This document shows positions 5,779-51,792 of a stretch of DNA of 59,806 bases, piece after piece (position 1 is the stretch's first letter; every line of letters starts with the position of its first letter). Source of the DNA: a virus. The stretch lies in IMG/VR virus record IMGVR_UViG_3300045988_166944; one strand, 5' to 3'. A program made the translations under genes and the position numbers. The notes under the pieces were generated by a model. The model was not told the origin of the DNA, searched no databases, and saw nothing but the letters and a program-made list of their open reading frames with translations.

Positions 5779-6471
5779 ATGATTATAGGAATTGTGGGTA
5801 AAGCTGGTGTGGGTAAAGACACCGCTGCCCAAATTTTAAGCAAACTCAAAAATATGCCGATTGCGTCTTTCGCAAGACCTTTGCACGAGGCTGCTAAATT
5901 CGTCTTTGGTAACGACTGCTTGGAGCGCGACAAGAAAGAAACGCCAATGCCTTTTGGCACATGTGGCTTCGGTAATTTCTACGAGAACTGGCTGATTCCT
6001 TTTTTGGAAACAGATGAGGTTCGGCTTATCACCAAGGACGATAAATCATTCCTTCAGCGACCTTTCCCCGTATTCACTGACCCCCGCAATGGTAGGTTTT
6101 ACCAAGAACTATCACCACGCAAATTCATGCAACTTCTCGGAACGGAATATTTCCGATTCTGTATGGATGAATTCTTCATCCATCTTATGCAGAACTCATA
6201 CGAAAACGTTATCATCCCTGACGTTCGATTTGAGAACGAAGCCGCTATCTGCGACCTGCTGATTGGTATCCATCGTGATGTTCCTTCGGTAAATGTCCAT
6301 TCGAGTGAAGAGTTTGCCGAACTAATTATTGACGATAATGACGACGGTCAGTCTGGAACAGTTAAAATCAGCGGCGGAAAGTGGCATAAATATCTGATTG
6401 TCTACAACACATATGATATTTCAGACTTAGAACAGAAACTGCAAAAACACGTCGACTTCGGTAATATTTAA
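5779..6471 (+). CDS. Deoxynucleoside monophosphate kinase (T5-type)
   Basis: P-loop GIVGKAGVGKDT at the N-terminus, followed by SPRKFMQLLGTEYFR and IIPDVRFENE, as in T5-type dNMP kinases. Confidence 0.7.
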   Translation: MIIGIVGKAGVGKDTAAQILSKLKNMPIASFARPLHEAAKFVFGNDCLERDKKETPMPFGTCGFGNFYENWLIPFLETDEVRLITKDDKSFLQRPFPVFTDPRNGRFYQELSPRKFMQLLGTEYFRFCMDEFFIHLMQNSYENVIIPDVRFENEAAICDLLIGIHRDVPSVNVHSSEEFAELIIDDNDDGQSGTVKISGGKWHKYLIVYNTYDISDLEQKLQKHVDFGNI

Positions 6472-6485
6472 TATCTCACTAAATG

Positions 6486-6521
6486 AAGCACTTAGCCGTA
6501 AAATACAGCTAAGTGCTTTTT
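6486..6521 (+). terminator. Rho-independent terminator (cassette R1)
   Basis: An 11-bp stem aagcacttagc / gctaagtgctt followed by a T-run. Confidence 0.8.
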
Positions 6522-6527
6522 AATTTC

Positions 6528-6556
6528 TTGACAATACTTATAAGCGTTGATATTAT
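6528..6556 (+). promoter_or_regulatory. Sigma70-type promoter (cassette R1)
   Basis: TTGACA (6528-6533), a 17-nt spacer, then TATTAT (6551-6556). Confidence 0.8.
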
Positions 6557-6592
6557 TCACCCATCAATCAACAACAAACAAAGGAAAAGATT

Positions 6593-6991
6593 ATGGCGTA
6601 CAATAATGACGCCAAACGATTGTTTGAGCAGTTCAAACACAATTTACCTCTAGCTATTAGGGAATATCGTTTAAGTCTTACTGGTAATGAAATGGGCGAT
6701 ATCCTTTCGAACATGATTCGTGACATGCCTGATGGTGCTGATAAAGAACAGATAAAGAGGGTTTTGAATTGCAAGGATTATTTCTTCGCTAGGGCGGATA
6801 AGCAAGGGAATGCTCGTTACGCAATTCCGTTTAGCTACTTCATGAAAGAAGGTTGTGATGAAAATTTTGTACGAAGCCTTCTCAAAAATACGTTTCGCGT
6901 ATACGGTAGCAGGGAACGCTATGTAACAACAGCGTCATCCCATTATGAACTCTTGGCAAAAGTAATTATGGTATTAGGAAGAGGTGGATAA
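6593..6991 (+). CDS. Hypothetical protein (132 aa)
   Basis: First gene after promoter R1. It starts MAY, like the gene after R3. Confidence 0.6.
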   Translation: MAYNNDAKRLFEQFKHNLPLAIREYRLSLTGNEMGDILSNMIRDMPDGADKEQIKRVLNCKDYFFARADKQGNARYAIPFSYFMKEGCDENFVRSLLKNTFRVYGSRERYVTTASSHYELLAKVIMVLGRGG

Positions 6992-6992
6992 A

Positions 6993-7247
6993 ATGGACGA
7001 ATTCGATATGGCTTTTATGCTGAACAACGCGGTATTCCTGACTGAAGATGTTCACGACAAAGTAAACGAACTGTCGAGAATATACAACTTTGTCAACTCT
7101 GCTGAAGTCGGTATCAATATTGAAACCGACAGCGATGAAGTTATCGGGTTGATGATAAGCGATTATTATTATCGTCCCGAATACGTCGTTGGCTTTGTCG
7201 AAATTGACGACAAATTATCAAAACTCATCATCCGAAAGGTAAAATAA
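6993..7247 (+). CDS. Hypothetical protein (84 aa), paralog of 7249-7500
   Basis: ATG at 6993 with a GGAAGAGGTGGA RBS; the track start at 6984 is a GTG. It shares LNNAVF(L/V)TED(V/L)HDK and an identical C-terminus, IDDKLSKLIIRKVK, with the next gene. Confidence 0.65.
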   Translation: MDEFDMAFMLNNAVFLTEDVHDKVNELSRIYNFVNSAEVGINIETDSDEVIGLMISDYYYRPEYVVGFVEIDDKLSKLIIRKVK

Positions 7248-7248
7248 A

Positions 7249-7500
7249 ATGAATGAGCATGAGGTTATGACACTGCTGAATAATGCAGTATTTGTAACTG
7301 AAGACCTACATGATAAGGCGGCTGAATTGGTGGATAACTACAATTTTGCCGACTTCACATACGTTTCGCTTCATCTCGAGGAAGAGGACTGTACGTACTT
7401 AAAACGCCTGTTATCTGATTGCCCGAACATTCATTATGTTATTGGTCTCTCTGAAATTGACGACAAATTATCAAAACTCATCATCCGAAAGGTAAAATAA
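7249..7500 (+). CDS. Hypothetical protein (83 aa), paralog of 6993-7247
   Basis: Tandem duplicate. Its 3' end and downstream junction, about 50 nt, are identical to the previous gene. Confidence 0.65.
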   Translation: MNEHEVMTLLNNAVFVTEDLHDKAAELVDNYNFADFTYVSLHLEEEDCTYLKRLLSDCPNIHYVIGLSEIDDKLSKLIIRKVK

Positions 7501-7501
7501 A

Positions 7502-7723
7502 ATGAAAGTAAATGCTCTGCATACAATCAAAAATATTGCGGTATTCTTGATTATCTTTTATGTCGACGCGCAACTGCTCGACAAACTCACCAATGCAAGA
7601 AATGCCAGCGACATTATCGTATATCTCGTATCGCTCTTCTTTATGCTGACGATTCTTATCGTACACTCATATCTCTTTTATGAACGTGTAAACCCCAAAG
7701 AAAAGGAAAATCAAAATGATTGA
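7502..7723 (+). CDS. Small membrane protein (73 aa, two hydrophobic segments)
   Basis: The segments IAVFLIIFYV and IIVYLVSLFFMLTILIV are hydrophobic. Confidence 0.55.
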   Translation: MKVNALHTIKNIAVFLIIFYVDAQLLDKLTNARNASDIIVYLVSLFFMLTILIVHSYLFYERVNPKEKENQND

Positions 7724-9310: not shown

Positions 9311-9336
9311 TTTGTAATTTAATATCTAACTAAATA

Positions 9337-9372
9337 AAGCACTTAGCCGTATTTTACGACTAAGTGCTTTTT
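9337..9372 (+). terminator. Rho-independent terminator (cassette R2)
   Basis: Stem aagcacttag / ctaagtgctt followed by a T-run. Confidence 0.8.
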
Positions 9373-9378
9373 AATTTC

Positions 9379-9407
9379 TTGACAATACTTATAGGCGTTG
9401 ATATTAT
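9379..9407 (+). promoter_or_regulatory. Sigma70-type promoter (cassette R2)
   Basis: TTGACA (9379-9384), a 17-nt spacer, then TATTAT (9402-9407). Confidence 0.8.
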
Positions 9408-9526
9408 TCACTTATCAACCAACAACGGAAATAAAGGAATCAATCATAAAATATCACGTCTTTAATAAGAAACCAACTCGTACTGCTATCGAAGAGGCTA
9501 TGTGATACAGCGACCCACAGGAGCAA

Positions 9527-11928: not shown

Positions 11929-13248
11929 ATGAAGAAAACTCTGATTGGGATTGGCATTGCTCTTGTAGCAGCATCTCAATTAACTATGGCTGAAGTAGGT
12001 CGCAGCGCGATTGTCAACGGCAATTACGCCACGGCTGAAGGCGCGGGCGCAACTGCTATCGGTATGCACTCACACGCCGATGCAAACCTCTCAAGTGCGT
12101 ATGGTGCGCATGCGAAGGCAAGCGGCGTAACTTCACAGGCGTTCGGTAGTGATTCGTGGGCTAAGGGTTACTCTACAACAGCCGTAGGTAAAGGTACACT
12201 GGCGGAAGGCTCTGCGTCTACCGCAGTGGGCGCACACGCCACAACGATTGGTAACAGTTCCTCCGCACTGGGTCTGCACGCAAATGCAATCGGTGGTCAA
12301 TCCACCGCCCTCGGTCAGTCGTCCGTCGCACGTGGCGACCAGTCAACGGCGGTTGGTAGCGGGGCAACAACGGAAGCCCGATTCAGCACTGCCATCGGAA
12401 CTAACGCCAAGACCAAACATTACGGCGGTGTCGCCCTCGGCTTCGGTTCGACGACCAGCGATTTCAACGGCGTATCCACTGCCACCGTCAACGGCATGAC
12501 TTATGGTAAGTTCGCAGGCAACCATCCATCGTCCGTGGTATCAATCGGCTCTGAAGGCTTCGAACGCCAGTTGCAAAACGTTGCTGCTGGTAATGTAACC
12601 GAAACGTCCACCGACGCAGTGAATGGCTCTCAGTTACACGCCGTCGCGTCTCAAGTAAGCACCAATTCGAAGGTGAATGACGCGCAGGACGCACGCATTG
12701 ATGCGCATGGCGAAATGTTGAATTCCCATCAAGAACAACTCGTCAATGTTCGTCAGACATTGCGACAACAAGCCTTTTGGCAAGATGTGCAGGACGATGC
12801 CATTCAAGAACTGCGGCAAGGTACATACGATTTGTACGGGCAAATCTTGGATACCCAGAAATGGGCGAGCGGTTACTTCGACGTACTTCGCGATACCATT
12901 GATAAAGACCGACGCAACAACAACGCTGGTGTGGCTGGCGCAATCGCTATCGGTACTATGATGCAACCGTATGAAGCGGGTCAAAGCGCAATCACTGTCG
13001 GCGCAGGTACGTTCAAGAATGAAGCCGCTGTCGCCGTTGGCGCATCCCATATCACCGAAAACGGTAAGTGGGGTTTCAAAGGCGGTGTGTCTGCCGATAC
13101 TCGTAAAAATATCGGCATCGGTCTGAGCGCGGCGTATTTCTTCGGCGCAAAACCGAAAGCAGTAGCAGCCCTGCAGCAAGTGATTGTTAAAGAAACCGTC
13201 GTTGTGCGTGAACCCGTGGTTGTTACCGACAAGAAAATTCGTCAGTAA
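11929..13248 (+). CDS. Trimeric autotransporter adhesin (YadA/Hia-like), 439 aa
   Basis: Signal peptide MKKTLIGIGIALVAASQLTMA. Head repeats of the type S(T/A)A(V/I)G..A.A.G. Neck sequence SVVSIGSEGFERQLQNVAAG...AVNGSQLHAV. A coiled-coil stalk. YadA-type anchor AGVAGAIAIG...GIGLSAAYFF, followed by a 34-aa tail. Confidence 0.9.
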   Translation: MKKTLIGIGIALVAASQLTMAEVGRSAIVNGNYATAEGAGATAIGMHSHADANLSSAYGAHAKASGVTSQAFGSDSWAKGYSTTAVGKGTLAEGSASTAVGAHATTIGNSSSALGLHANAIGGQSTALGQSSVARGDQSTAVGSGATTEARFSTAIGTNAKTKHYGGVALGFGSTTSDFNGVSTATVNGMTYGKFAGNHPSSVVSIGSEGFERQLQNVAAGNVTETSTDAVNGSQLHAVASQVSTNSKVNDAQDARIDAHGEMLNSHQEQLVNVRQTLRQQAFWQDVQDDAIQELRQGTYDLYGQILDTQKWASGYFDVLRDTIDKDRRNNNAGVAGAIAIGTMMQPYEAGQSAITVGAGTFKNEAAVAVGASHITENGKWGFKGGVSADTRKNIGIGLSAAYFFGAKPKAVAALQQVIVKETVVVREPVVVTDKKIRQ

Positions 13249-13267
13249 TTTAATATCTCACTAAATA

Positions 13268-13303
13268 AAGCACTTAGCCGTAAAATACAGCTAAGTGCTT
13301 TTT
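13268..13303 (+). terminator. Rho-independent terminator (cassette R3)
   Basis: An 11-bp stem aagcacttagc / gctaagtgctt followed by a T-run. Confidence 0.8.
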
Positions 13304-13309
13304 AATTTC

Positions 13310-13338
13310 TTGACAATACTTATACACGTTGATATTAT
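13310..13338 (+). promoter_or_regulatory. Sigma70-type promoter (cassette R3)
   Basis: TTGACA (13310-13315), a 17-nt spacer, then TATTAT (13333-13338). Confidence 0.8.
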
Positions 13339-13374
13339 TCACTCACTACTTAACAACAAACGAAGGAGCTGAAA

Positions 13375-13857
13375 ATGGCGTATACCGACGAAGAACTGCG
13401 CGAGATGCTGCTTAGCGCGAATCGTGAACTGTACCGATTAACCGAGAGTTTGTGCTATATGAAAGCACCTACAGTCCTTATTCACAATATTCTGCATACG
13501 AAATCGTTAAACGACGTTGAAGAAGATGTACTCAACAGGCTTGACCGCTACAAGCGCGTTTCTGCCGTGTTGAGTTATTTGGAAGATATTGGTGGCAAAA
13601 TAACCCATAAGGGAAATCTCTACTTCTTTAACGAAGACGAAGGTGTTTCGTGGGGTACTATTGAGGAGTTACTCAGTGATGACACAATATATGACGGGGA
13701 AGCCTTCGTGTTGACCGTTGAAGAAATTGTGCCGAAGTTGTTGAAGCCGCTTCTTGATGAGTGTATTGAAAACAAAAACAGGGATGCTATTTATCAGCTA
13801 TCACAGTCCATTAATTATGTGTTTAACCACATGCTTGAAGACAGCAAAGACGAATAG
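13375..13857 (+). CDS. Hypothetical protein (160 aa), paralog of 14127-14630
   Basis: Shares YFFN, YDGE and I(V/I)P(K/E)LL.P blocks with the gene at 14127. Confidence 0.6.
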   Translation: MAYTDEELREMLLSANRELYRLTESLCYMKAPTVLIHNILHTKSLNDVEEDVLNRLDRYKRVSAVLSYLEDIGGKITHKGNLYFFNEDEGVSWGTIEELLSDDTIYDGEAFVLTVEEIVPKLLKPLLDECIENKNRDAIYQLSQSINYVFNHMLEDSKDE

Positions 13858-14126: not shown

Positions 14127-14630
14127 ATGGAAGAAGCCGACATTAAATTTGCATTACGAAACATTGCAGCAGCTAATTTAAGCCTATGTGACCAGCTAAT
14201 ATCTCTTAATGCAAGCCCTACGATGATTGCACAAAACGCGCTGGGTGGTTTTATTGCGGATGCCGAAACTGTTGAAGAGTATGTTAACCGTATAACAACA
14301 GAAAACGAGCGATTAAAACTTGGTATCGCACGGCTTAAGTGGCTAGAAGTTGATATGACGGATAAATGCAATGTCTACTTCTTTAACAAAATACGAGGTG
14401 TTGTTACAACCAATCCTCAGAAGCTATTGGATGTTGATGGCGTATATGACGGTGAGCGTGTTGTTGCGGATATTGAGCAGATTATTCCAGAATTATTGAT
14501 ACCGGCATTACGCGATTCCCTTAAAACTTCAGACATCAATATGTGTATGCGAATCAATGACTCCATTGCTGAGGTTTTAACTATGCTTGATAAACAAAAG
14601 GAAAAGGAAATGGAAATGGAAAATGAATAA
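14127..14630 (+). CDS. Hypothetical protein (167 aa), paralog of 13375-13857
   Basis: Collinear conserved blocks with the gene at 13375. Confidence 0.6.
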   Translation: MEEADIKFALRNIAAANLSLCDQLISLNASPTMIAQNALGGFIADAETVEEYVNRITTENERLKLGIARLKWLEVDMTDKCNVYFFNKIRGVVTTNPQKLLDVDGVYDGERVVADIEQIIPELLIPALRDSLKTSDINMCMRINDSIAEVLTMLDKQKEKEMEMENE

Positions 14631-34492: not shown

Positions 34493-35971
34493 TTATTCTA
34501 AGACATAGACGTAGTTTCCGCAGTCGAATAACTGATAATACCCGTTCATGCGCATGTTCGCCACTTCACTCAAAGATTCATCAAAGCCATCGCCGAGAAG
34601 TGATTTCAATTTATGCTTCTGACATTGGCTCCTTGAGTAACGAATGTCTCCGTTTTTCACATACCAATAATTCGGTGCAGATGCGCTGATTCGGGTGAAG
34701 CCCAGTTTCTCATATAAGCCGCCATTGGAGAATCGACGATTGGCGTAACTTACAATAGAACCCGTGTATGCTTTTCTAAAAGCTACCAATAATTTGGAAG
34801 CTCCGCCAACAACGTGAAGCCCTGCTTTATTACAAAACCGCATCAGTTCCCAATGATACTGCTTCGTGTATCTGGGCTTGGCGAACGTCATAATAGAAAC
34901 GAGTTCTTCATTGCAGTACAAGCCGAGCCGCACACTGGAAGGAACAGTACCTTGTAGATGGTTGTCTTTCAGGAAACGGGAAGCCTCTTCCGACGAGACT
35001 TCACGGAGGGTTGTTTTTCGGGCGTATATTTTAGTACCAGTAATACCCAGTTTGGCGGCAATCATGGATTCGACAAGACTTCGTTTTCCAACCACTTCAG
35101 TATCCCAGAAATGAAGTAAAGCTATTCCTTTTGATTCACACAATTCAGTCTTATTCAGATGCGAGCTTCGAGTCTTACCAAATTCCGTTGTATGCCAATG
35201 TACGCCGTTTACTTCAATAGCAAGCCGTTTGTTCGGTTCGTATAAATCAAGTTCCAATCCGTCCAGTTGGCTTCGGTTGCCTTGTTCGAATTGAGGGAAT
35301 GTGTCTTTCAATGATTGCTCAACGCGCGAGATTGCGTTACATGTGCATTTTATACAGCCTTTGCCTTGAAGATGATTATTCGGGGTCTGCTGAAACTTTC
35401 CATGTTTAGGGCATATTATGCCCACGGGTCGGTGGCTTGTTGTGTAGTCAACTTCGGAATAATCATACTTGCCATTGTGAAGTTTTTCCGCTTTCTGTAT
35501 GAATGACGAACCTCTGACGTTAGCTGGGATTTTTGACGGAACGGAAACCCCTCTTCGCTTTTCAGCGCGACGCTTAATCCCACACTGTTTACACCCCTTT
35601 CCAGCCAACAGCATACCTGCCTGCTTCTCAAACACGCCATGCTCAGGACATACCAGTTTTACGGGTACTTTATACCCTCCGTATTCGACAGACGAATAAT
35701 CATACGCGTCGCCAAAAAGAACCTTTAGGCGGTTGATAAATTCTTCCTTAGGTAGTTGCAGAGCTTTCCCTGTTGAAGCGTATCCGCATTTTGGGCAACC
35801 CACACCATTCATAAAATGATTGGCTCGTATGGAGAACACGCCATGTTTTCTACATACGACTTCCACTGGCTCACTGGTAGAACGATAAATAGCTTGCGTC
35901 AGGTCGTATTTTTCTCCGTGGACATCTTTCGCTCGTCGGATAAATTCTTCTTGGTTGATTTTTGCTGCCAT
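34493..35971 (-). CDS. Homing-endonuclease-like protein (492 aa)
   Basis: Three tandem repeats of about 65 aa, each with the pattern HG.KYDYS...Y....V..(I/V)C..HG.F......H..G.GC..C. These are followed by a PD-(D/E)XK-like block, LDLYEPNKRLAIEVNGVHWH. The last block is IYARKTTLREV...FLKDNHLQG. Confidence 0.6.
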   Translation of the reverse strand: MAAKINQEEFIRRAKDVHGEKYDLTQAIYRSTSEPVEVVCRKHGVFSIRANHFMNGVGCPKCGYASTGKALQLPKEEFINRLKVLFGDAYDYSSVEYGGYKVPVKLVCPEHGVFEKQAGMLLAGKGCKQCGIKRRAEKRRGVSVPSKIPANVRGSSFIQKAEKLHNGKYDYSEVDYTTSHRPVGIICPKHGKFQQTPNNHLQGKGCIKCTCNAISRVEQSLKDTFPQFEQGNRSQLDGLELDLYEPNKRLAIEVNGVHWHTTEFGKTRSSHLNKTELCESKGIALLHFWDTEVVGKRSLVESMIAAKLGITGTKIYARKTTLREVSSEEASRFLKDNHLQGTVPSSVRLGLYCNEELVSIMTFAKPRYTKQYHWELMRFCNKAGLHVVGGASKLLVAFRKAYTGSIVSYANRRFSNGGLYEKLGFTRISASAPNYWYVKNGDIRYSRSQCQKHKLKSLLGDGFDESLSEVANMRMNGYYQLFDCGNYVYVLE

Positions 35972-51715: not shown

Positions 51716-51792
51716 TGGTCAGAGAGGTAGGACTCGAACCTACGACCTCTTGCTTCCAAGGCAAGCCATCTACCAACTGATATTACTCTCTG
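51716..51792 (-). tRNA. tRNA-Pro (anticodon UGG) with encoded CCA
   Basis: Cloverleaf: acceptor CAGAGAG/CTCTCTG, D stem TATC/GATG, anticodon stem CTTGC/GCAAG, loop CTTGGAA, T arm GTAGG-TTCGAGT-CCTAC. C1-G72 and A73 fit Pro identity. Confidence 0.8.

Follow-up and report, generated by a model that had tools for sequence, protein, structure and literature searches.

A phage-encoded trimeric autotransporter adhesin with a conserved tail resembling the C-terminus of Neisseria TpgA-like lipoproteins

Results

A complete adhesin gene in a siphovirus genome

The window analysed here is the whole 59,806-nucleotide stretch of IMG/VR virus record IMGVR_UViG_3300045988_166944, a siphovirus of about 60 kb, and the gene under study (Table 1) encodes a trimeric autotransporter adhesin (TAA) that runs on beyond its membrane anchor. 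An original prediction, made from the nucleotide sequence and its translated open reading frames (ORFs), described this gene as a complete YadA/Hia-type adhesin, and profile and structure searches bear this out. Pfam YadA_head matched in four stretches (E 1.7e-13, 51 bits against a cut-off of 25), YadA_stalk at residues 214-255 (E 4.9e-9) and YadA_anchor at residues 345-403 (E 3.1e-13), all three exceeding the Pfam gathering scores. The best partial NCBIfam matches were EmaA, Ata, YadA, BimA and Vomp, and the solved structures matched by the sequence were pieces of BpaC, UspA1, YadA, Hia and AtaA. The predicted signal peptide was also recognised by inspection, consisting of MKK, a hydrophobic core (LIGIGIALVAA) and SQLTMA with cleavage before E, and this cleavage pattern, followed by E or A, is kept in close phage homologues.

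An AlphaFold2 (AF2) monomer model, built from a 30-sequence alignment, agrees with these assignments. The head is modelled as a beta-roll of regular five-residue strands (pLDDT 85-94 over approximately residues 30-160), the stalk as a single long helix (233-342) and the anchor as four strands (353-362, 365-375, 381-390 and 395-403). The top Foldseek matches were the membrane anchors of Hia, AtaA and YadA, with E-values from 1e-5 to 3e-2 and target TM-scores of 0.61-0.82. By domain identity and predicted fold, the ORF is a genuine type Vc TAA. Its barrel terminates in ...AAYFF, with F405 as the last aromatic residue, and is followed by the 34 residues G406-Q439, exactly where the original prediction had placed an additional tail.

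The tail defines a family of phage adhesins

Termination at the aromatic residue of the last strand is usual for proteobacterial TAAs, and the phage TAA departs from this usage. It is no strict requirement of the family (bioRxiv 10.64898/2026.01.22.700529). In a search of 1.84 billion representative proteins with the anchor and tail together, the chain ended at the barrel in 145 of the 150 best representatives and ran on into a tail in five. The earlier view of the tail as unusual is supported by this rarity, but the tail is not peculiar to one protein: judged from the homologues, it marks out a whole family of phage TAAs, and a counterpart in bacteria is described below.

All 30 aligned homologues carry the tail, down to 44% identity, with a length of 32-38 residues. 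It comprises a Pro/Lys-rich linker, a core resembling VV(K/R)E-VV(V/I)RE and the ending (K/R)(I/V)R(Q/G), and R427, E428 and R438 are invariant among the 30. The dN/dS ratio of the tail, calculated by the Nei-Gojobori method as for the other regions, is 0.00-0.23 at a dS of 0.2-0.9. This conservation, combined with the low dN/dS, indicates that the tail is translated and under selection. The Pfam scan found neither an SLH nor an OmpA domain in the phage TAA, and AF2 gave the tail no predicted structure (pLDDT of about 30) and no helix, in a monomer model that does not cover the trimeric state.

Elsewhere in the gene, dN/dS is 0.06-0.16 over the whole length, 0.04-0.14 in the head and 0.00-0.07 in the anchor, and the stalk (positions ~12660-12920) is the most variable part, having the highest values, up to 0.5-0.7 between stalk types. 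Protein lengths within the clade (homologues in loci L090-L102) are 418, 425, 432, 439 and 446 residues, steps of exactly one heptad. The low head dN/dS, together with a head identity of 45-58% across unrelated phages, argues for a single conserved ligand, as far as substitution patterns can indicate.

The tail resembles the C-terminus of Neisseria TpgA-like lipoproteins

Bacterial relatives were sought in one genome per species, covering 185,579 bacterial and archaeal species. The nearest full-length relatives were Neisseria TAAs with 33-36% identity over residues 24/44-403, derived from N. weixii, N. mucosa, a contig labelled N. meningitidis and metagenome-assembled genomes (MAGs), one of them binned as Haemophilus; no full-length relative above 36% identity was found among these species representatives. 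These nearest bacterial TAAs end canonically in ...GYQW without a tail, and the next gene after each Neisseria TAA encodes a lipoprotein of about 155 residues with the lipobox LAACG. The body of this lipoprotein is a Pfam BamE domain (E 2e-17) and matches positions 52-127 of the 268-position NCBIfam TpgA model, which correspond to its N-domain (E 3.5e-19), and its C-terminus reads ...VVREVIIREVAPAPA.RIRQ, with the ending ...PQVVREVIIREVAPAPAQTRIRQ or a close variant. Pfam and NCBIfam scans found no OmpA domain in the short lipoprotein.

A hidden Markov model (HMM) built from 21 phage tails alone was run on 12,692 ORFs from 80 bacterial TAA loci. It matched only five Neisseria TpgA-like lipoproteins (E 8.5e-8 to 3.6e-3), the next match having an E-value of 2.3, and two regular-expression scans concurred, the likeness extending to the terminal [KR]IRQ. 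These profile matches relate the phage tail to the peptide that ends the Neisseria TpgA-like lipoproteins. AF2 modelling of the lipoprotein, at low confidence (mean pLDDT 51.5, 12 sequences), left its tail unpacked on the BamE domain and is uninformative.

The short, tail-ending form of the lipoprotein (151-157 residues) was named only from Neisseria (N. weaveri and Neisseria sp. CCUG12390), besides metagenome sequences. Long relatives of 246-275 residues with an OmpA domain (PF00691), 62-76% identical to it, are present in Pasteurellaceae (PlpD) and Uruburuella, and one Neisseria TAA precedes a canonical TpgA of 282 residues. The short and long forms part exactly at the start of the tail, so that the peptide appears to occupy the place of OmpA_C in the Neisseria lipoprotein. 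Several of the Pasteurellaceae PlpD/TpgA homologues (P0148, P0210, P0176 and P0232) end in ...GPAPLYRK, ...LYAK or ...LYQK after the OmpA domain, endings that resemble the C-terminal ...YRK of Braun's lipoprotein, whose last lysine is covalently linked to peptidoglycan, and that may hint at covalent wall attachment of TAA partners.

The possibility that the Neisseria taa/tpgA-like pair is itself of prophage origin was rejected for N. weixii, in which the pair sits amid housekeeping genes (UDG, TsaB-like, transaldolase, KdsD, LptC and LptB). A DDE transposase gene lies directly after the pair in this species (locus L003, 9769-10407, minus strand), and the pair may be mobile within Neisseria chromosomes.

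Loss of the TpgA docking signature

In Acinetobacter, TpgA and AtaA form an A3B3 complex in which the BamE-like N-domain of TpgA sits against the periplasmic side of the AtaA barrel, through the contacts K64-D3601, D65-K3576 and L80/F81, and the OmpA_C domain of TpgA binds peptidoglycan (Yoshimoto et al., PMC12523085). Approximately 80% of the proteins in the TpgA cluster have OmpA_C, and 91% are encoded downstream of a taa gene (PMC12523085). The chain numbering of the solved structure 9vnj was aligned to the phage anchor with an offset of 3522 (K54 = K3576, D79 = D3601). The equivalent of K3576 is Q352 in the phage TAAs, invariant in 30 of 30 sequences, and that of D3601 is E377 in the protein studied here, a position that varies among the 30 (E13, K5, S6, T2, D2, N1, H1). 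The Neisseria relatives retain Lys and Asp at the two positions. Judged from this alignment, the phage TAA family has lost the TpgA docking signature. No tpgA-like gene lies directly downstream of the phage TAA gene, the next gene (13375-13857) encoding a protein of 160 residues that has neither lipobox nor signal peptide and whose orthologue in L081, a related phage locus, has no Pfam match.

Genome setting and transcription unit

The genes for tape measure, tail, major head, portal, large terminase, helicase, DNA polymerase and primase lie on the minus strand (structural block 19-46 kb), and small genes occupy the plus strand between about 2 and 18 kb together with those for ThyX, dUTPase, dNMP kinase, the small subunit of ribonucleotide reductase, an RdgC-like protein, a muramidase and HU. 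The TAA gene stands on the plus strand amid these nucleotide-metabolism and small genes, in agreement with its earlier assignment to an early/middle block, and the reported lack of an integrase holds for the ten large unassigned ORFs that the scan covered. The large terminase has identities of 51-58% to its counterparts in cultured 56-61 kb phages of Pseudomonas, Serratia, Pectobacterium, Aeromonas, Providencia and Proteus, which are described as virulent and in which tblastn found no recognisable TAA copy. Megablast of the region against cultured phages gave no match, and tblastn of the TAA against cultured-phage records yielded no more than four weak records, of which two are bacterial contigs under a wrong label.

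Three copies of a 135-nucleotide cassette, 78-90% identical, occur in the early region, each with the order strong hairpin, TTGACA-17-TATTAT promoter with extended -10, and ribosome-binding site (RBS). The third copy opens at the stop codon of the TAA gene, as the original prediction had indicated in placing a cassette immediately behind it. The cassettes divide the early plus-strand region into units of about 2.9 and 3.9 kb, a layout that may ease gene-cassette exchange. Since no promoter-like site directly precedes the TAA gene, only 22 nucleotides separate it from the preceding ORF and the nearest strong promoter lies in the second cassette, the TAA gene is the last of the ~3.9 kb unit.

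The GC content is 0.55 at positions 12001-13000 and approximately 0.43 in the flanks. GC at third codon positions (GC3) is 0.52, within the range of 0.34-0.62 for the genes of this phage, and the high overall value is due to codon positions 1 and 2, reflecting an Ala/Gly-rich protein; the anomaly was therefore rejected as a sign of recent transfer. When IMG/VR was probed with the neighbouring exonuclease gene, each of the 11 loci that extended far enough downstream held a full-length TAA at the same position, including those in which the exonuclease was only 65-71% identical, and in a twelfth the contig end cuts the TAA after 50 residues. The gene is also at the identical position in L081. Approximately 95 homologues with 72-90% identity are encoded mostly on contigs of 56-61 kb, and their NCBI cluster names are those of Caudoviricetes MAGs. 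The suggestion that the gene is a moron, in the sense of an autonomous or recent insertion, does not survive these observations: it has no promoter-like site directly upstream, its terminator belongs to a thrice-repeated cassette, its GC3 is phage-like and it is present throughout the clade. The TAA gene is a fixed, selected gene of one lytic-type clade, which is new with respect to the literature searched.

Distribution among phages, habitat and host

Tail-bearing homologues with 42-58% identity are present in clearly different phages, comprising at least four other unrelated contexts: a 155-kb myovirus with sheath and tube genes (L085); a 205-kb contig with a faint match to multisubunit RNA polymerase (L083); a T4-like myovirus with Gp5_OB, T4_baseplate and topoisomerase II, in a cluster whose contigs reach 127-130 kb (L087); and a 62.9-kb contig with DNA_pol_A and Amidase_3 (L089). 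The longest contigs of further TAA clusters measure 175-184 kb and about 245 kb. No tail-bearing homologue was seen in a bacterial genome. Across six phage contexts, the 5-kb flanks on each side share no ORF, except for one pair between two myoviruses, revealing no co-transferred partner gene and indicating that the TAA gene moves alone.

The sample labels LASS17, BRIT16, VALL22 and ZHAN15 point to human cohort metagenomes, which we take to include saliva and other oral samples, and the phages would accordingly be of oral origin. Their host is probably Neisseria, which is favoured because the tail motif was found only in Neisseria lipoproteins, because the nearest full-length TAAs belong to this genus and because of the tetranucleotide signature. 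The last is a weak test, in which N. lactamica (correlation 0.84) and N. mucosa (0.80) ranked first and one Pseudomonas locus followed (0.78). Neither a variant of the Neisseria DNA uptake sequence (DUS) nor the Hin-type uptake signal sequence (USS) was found in the window, and the Apl-type USS occurred once against 0.4 expected by chance. The C-terminal 500 residues of the 1297-residue tail protein had no match in cultured phages, and the endolysin, whose nearest relatives are in Acinetobacter and Pseudomonas phages, is uninformative on the host. One subfamily of N4-like viruses with YadA_anchor genes has been linked to Haemophilus parainfluenzae (Zheng et al., PMC10654107), and a Pasteurellaceae host is therefore also possible.

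If the assignment to Neisseria is right, the window and L083, L085, L087, L088 and L089 (~17 to 205 kb) represent at least five lytic-type lineages for a genus with almost no cultured lytic phages. One study reports that a search for lytic phages of N. gonorrhoeae was unsuccessful (PMC8868155).

Table 1. Positions of the adhesin gene, the regions of its product and the repeated cassettes in the window
Feature	Position	Strand	Basis or remark
TAA coding sequence	11929..13248	+	439 aa + stop; ATG at 11929, TAA stop codon at 13246-13248
Sec-type signal peptide, aa 1-21 (MKKTLIGIGIALVAASQLTMA)	11929..11991	+	Read by eye from sequence
Head, YadA-type left-handed beta-roll repeats, aa 22-200	11992..12528	+	Pfam YadA_head and AF2
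Neck and coiled-coil stalk, aa 201-330	12529..12918	+	Pfam YadA_stalk 214-255 and AF2 helix
Membrane anchor, aa 331-405, pore helix and four beta-strands, end ...AAYFF	12919..13143	+	Pfam YadA_anchor, Foldseek
Putative periplasmic tail, aa 406-439 (GAKPKAVAALQQVIVKETVVVREPVVVTDKKIRQ)	13144..13245	+	Homologue conservation, dN/dS, profile matches
Cassette copy 1	6466-6600		135-nt repeat family D1
Cassette copy 2	9317..9451	+	Hairpin 9336-9370 and promoter TTGACA-17-TATTAT 9379-9407 (11/12 consensus positions); likely start of the unit ending with the TAA gene
Cassette copy 3	13248-13382	+	Repeat family D1; begins at the stop codon of the TAA gene
Intrinsic-terminator hairpin, then UUUUUAAUUU (U-run), in cassette copy 3	13267..13301	+	-18.5 kcal/mol, z -6.4, matched by 0/200 shuffles
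Promoter-like site in cassette copy 3, TTGACA-17-TATTAT with extended -10 TG	13310..13338	+	Would drive the next unit

Other features of the window

Several further repeats and genes were observed. Three tandem copies of a 36-nucleotide unit (TTCACCCCTAGACAGGCTCTCTCCC[A/G]ATATAAAATT) at 1901-2008, in an AT-rich region between divergent gene blocks, are candidates for iterons or for a regulatory array close to a replication origin or genome end. Near the left end, a direct repeat of 138 nucleotides (34-171 and 1549-1686) has 90% identity, and an exact repeat of 54 nucleotides (7200-7253 and 7453-7506) holds a promoter-like site, RBS and ATG, so that two adjacent small genes begin identically. 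Behind the TAA unit, the products of ORFs 13375-13857 and 14127-14630 (160 and 167 residues), neither with a Pfam match, look like diverged paralogues; the ORFs have in common a 48-nucleotide stretch with 73% identity and their products similar N-terminal and central motifs. On the minus strand, the gene at 34493-35971 encodes a 492-residue protein matching PHROG families of HNH/homing endonucleases and, weakly, a Mom-like DNA-modification family; its position, with the tape-measure region on one side and the head genes on the other, is odd and could point to a homing element or a role in DNA modification. A single tRNA-Pro gene (anticodon UGG) lies amid the replication genes at 51716-51792, also on the minus strand.

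Discussion

A proposed tether carried in cis

The reading favoured here, which is judged rather probable, is that the phage TAA is a surface adhesin made during infection which carries in cis a periplasmic tether or stabiliser that a host TAA obtains in trans, its partner lipoprotein being the source. The TAA gene, which closes an early/middle operon, would be expressed during infection and, as in other members of the family, its product would be exported by Sec, three chains then forming a 12-stranded barrel in the host outer membrane through the beta-barrel assembly machinery (BAM). The infected cell would thereby display a YadA-sized 'lollipop' of beta-roll head and short coiled-coil stalk. 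Since the C-terminus of the barrel would face the periplasm, the three 34-residue tails, one per chain, would hang into this compartment. The same peptide would then be found twice at one cellular address, on a lipoprotein docked below the TAA barrel in Neisseria and fused to the C-terminus of the barrel in the phage, and its presence on both TAA and partner suggests that it acts at the periplasmic face of the anchor. Candidate ligands of the tail are peptidoglycan, the other two tails of the trimer and, more speculatively, a peptidoglycan-binding protein such as RmpM.

The fused tether could make the phage adhesin self-sufficient, a one-gene module able to move between phages. A wider proposal, put forward only tentatively, is that a phage-only TAA family passes, as a module of one gene, between no fewer than five unrelated lytic lineages of one oral bacterial group, probably Neisseria, thanks to a captured TpgA-like envelope-tethering peptide. 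The conserved head could serve either in adhesion and aggregation of the infected cell or in receptor masking at its surface, and the data fit the two alike. Preferred, although unproven, is an 'auxiliary adhesin' that keeps the infected cell attached, or attached to fresh hosts, under constant flow.

Several points weigh against the tether. A profile of the tail alone, searched against a database of 5.8 billion proteins, brought up short fragments alone, five in number, of which four were the ends of Neisseria lipoproteins and one that of a phage TAA, and the peptide may have further carriers. Given the brevity of the tail and its abundance of V, R and E, convergence or composition could account for part of the similarity, and AF2 predicts no structure for it on the phage TAA or on the lipoprotein. 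The equivalence with OmpA is an argument from position, and both expression timing and surface display are read from the place of the gene. The word 'tether' is too strong if the tail is no more than a coiled-coil stub of the trimer. A salt bridge between E377 and a TpgA-like lysine is still conceivable, and the phage TAA could then use a host partner.

Alternative explanations

The alternative with most in its favour, although considered unlikely, is that the main role of the protein is superinfection exclusion or protection of progeny, a dense TAA layer or the periplasmic tail masking or disabling a phage receptor on infected cells and debris. Outer-membrane exclusion proteins are an established class in lytic phages. 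In phage T5, for example, Llp blocks FhuA (PMC9586334). The early/middle operon position would suit such a role, as would conservation in several unrelated phages that apparently share a habitat and perhaps a host, which fits a common cell-surface target. TAAs are, however, typically adhesins, and a head so well conserved across phages with different tail machinery argues for a common ligand rather than for several receptors. A direct role in the virion, as a tail fibre or adhesin assembled from TAA-like head and stalk modules, is very improbable. Phage fibres are known to contain YadA-like head and stalk modules, and the PHROG matches include phrog_17426, labelled tail/adhesin, but that match itself spans the anchor (residues 214-398), and the protein combines a cleavable-type signal peptide with a complete four-strand outer-membrane anchor and is encoded among plus-strand early genes, away from the minus-strand structural block.

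That the tail is a functionless product of chance read-through or a low-complexity extension, its likeness to the lipoproteins being coincidental, would accord with its brevity, its composition and its lack of structure in AF2. This is nevertheless hard to reconcile with its presence in every aligned homologue, with the invariant R-E...R, with its dN/dS and with a profile that selects only five TAA-adjacent lipoproteins from all ORFs scanned, down to the terminal [KR]IRQ, and the explanation is regarded as highly unlikely. It is scarcely credible that the region is bacterial DNA, joined to the phage in an assembly chimera or at a prophage/host junction. The raised GC content and the fact that the nearest annotated relatives are bacterial adhesins could be taken in this sense, but GC3 is phage-typical, L081 and 11 IMG/VR contigs of 56-61 kb hold the gene at the identical position, its homologues are mostly on contigs of that size in clusters named as Caudoviricetes MAGs, and the species representatives hold no closer full-length relative than the Neisseria TAAs.

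Significance and comparison with known systems

The occurrence of one peptide on a phage TAA and on a Neisseria partner lipoprotein has the form of a natural fusion ('Rosetta stone'), and makes the peptide a candidate for a new means by which type Vc adhesins are tethered or stabilised in Proteobacteria, a group in which extensions are considered rare. If the wider proposal is true, it would point to a periplasmic anchoring motif of type Vc secretion that had gone unrecognised, and to lytic phages that provide the infected cell with an 'auxiliary adhesin' on its surface, staying attached or gathering new hosts in a flowing biofilm. Remodelling of the infected-cell surface has so far been discussed mainly for prophages; a fixed adhesin gene, recurring in unrelated phages of the same human cohorts, suggests that it also benefits lytic phages in the mouth. 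The motif further ties a set of phages, uncultured and roughly 60 to 245 kb in size, to Neisseria-like hosts, and hardly any lytic phages of such hosts are known in culture. No prior description was found, in the literature searched, of the tail motif and its tie to TpgA-like C-termini, of the loss of the TpgA-contact signature in the fused form or of the recurrence of the TAA as a lone module in several unrelated phages.

Phage TAA genes and periplasmic TAA extensions were each known before. Genes for Eib TAAs are known from E. coli prophages, and in that setting are lysogenic-conversion genes of temperate phages, unlike the gene described here, which belongs to a lytic-type phage. The Eib proteins of these prophages bind immunoglobulin (PMC4352079), and YadA_anchor 'virulence AMGs' (auxiliary metabolic genes) have been listed in 19 N4-like genomes (PMC10654107). 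The N4-like viruses are lytic, as the present lytic-type phage appears to be, and some of them come from host-associated habitats. Neither Eib nor the N4-like proteins matched the phage TAA in the tblastn search of cultured-phage records, and no tail or link to a partner peptide has been described for either. In size and architecture, with signal peptide, left-handed beta-roll head, neck, stalk and four-strand anchor, the phage TAA is similar to YadA of Yersinia, UspA1, Hia and AtaA, and differs from YadA-type TAAs in being encoded by a lytic-type phage and in its conserved tail of 32-38 residues after the aromatic residue of the barrel.

Periplasmic extensions have been reported in 12% of TAAs, almost all outside Proteobacteria, with exceptions in 47 of 323 Neisseria and 43 of 406 Haemophilus TAAs and in 70 of 2934 from Betaproteobacteria (Dorison et al., bioRxiv 10.64898/2026.01.22.700529). 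In that study, which does not mention phages and whose supplement does not list the extension-bearing Neisseria and Haemophilus TAAs, the extensions were of coiled-coil, SLH and OmpA types, the short ones mainly coiled coils, and Veillonella TAAs were degraded once their periplasmic domains had been removed. The phage tail differs from these in its length of only 34 residues, in lacking SLH and OmpA domains and, in the AF2 monomer, a predicted coiled coil, and in its proteobacterial-type lineage. Like the TAAs with periplasmic domains of Negativicutes, Fusobacteriia, Synergistia and Synechococcus, it would extend past the barrel into the periplasm, where a role in stability or anchoring is plausible.

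The AtaA-TpgA system of Acinetobacter provides the remaining comparison. Unlike AtaA, the phage TAA has no partner gene and no BamE or OmpA domain, and its anchor has Q in place of K3576 and a variable residue in place of D3601. As with AtaA-TpgA, however, its nearest bacterial relatives sit in taa-tpgA-like cassettes, and its tail appears to be related to the C-terminus of the Neisseria partner in these cassettes, the peptide being fused in the phage to the barrel itself.

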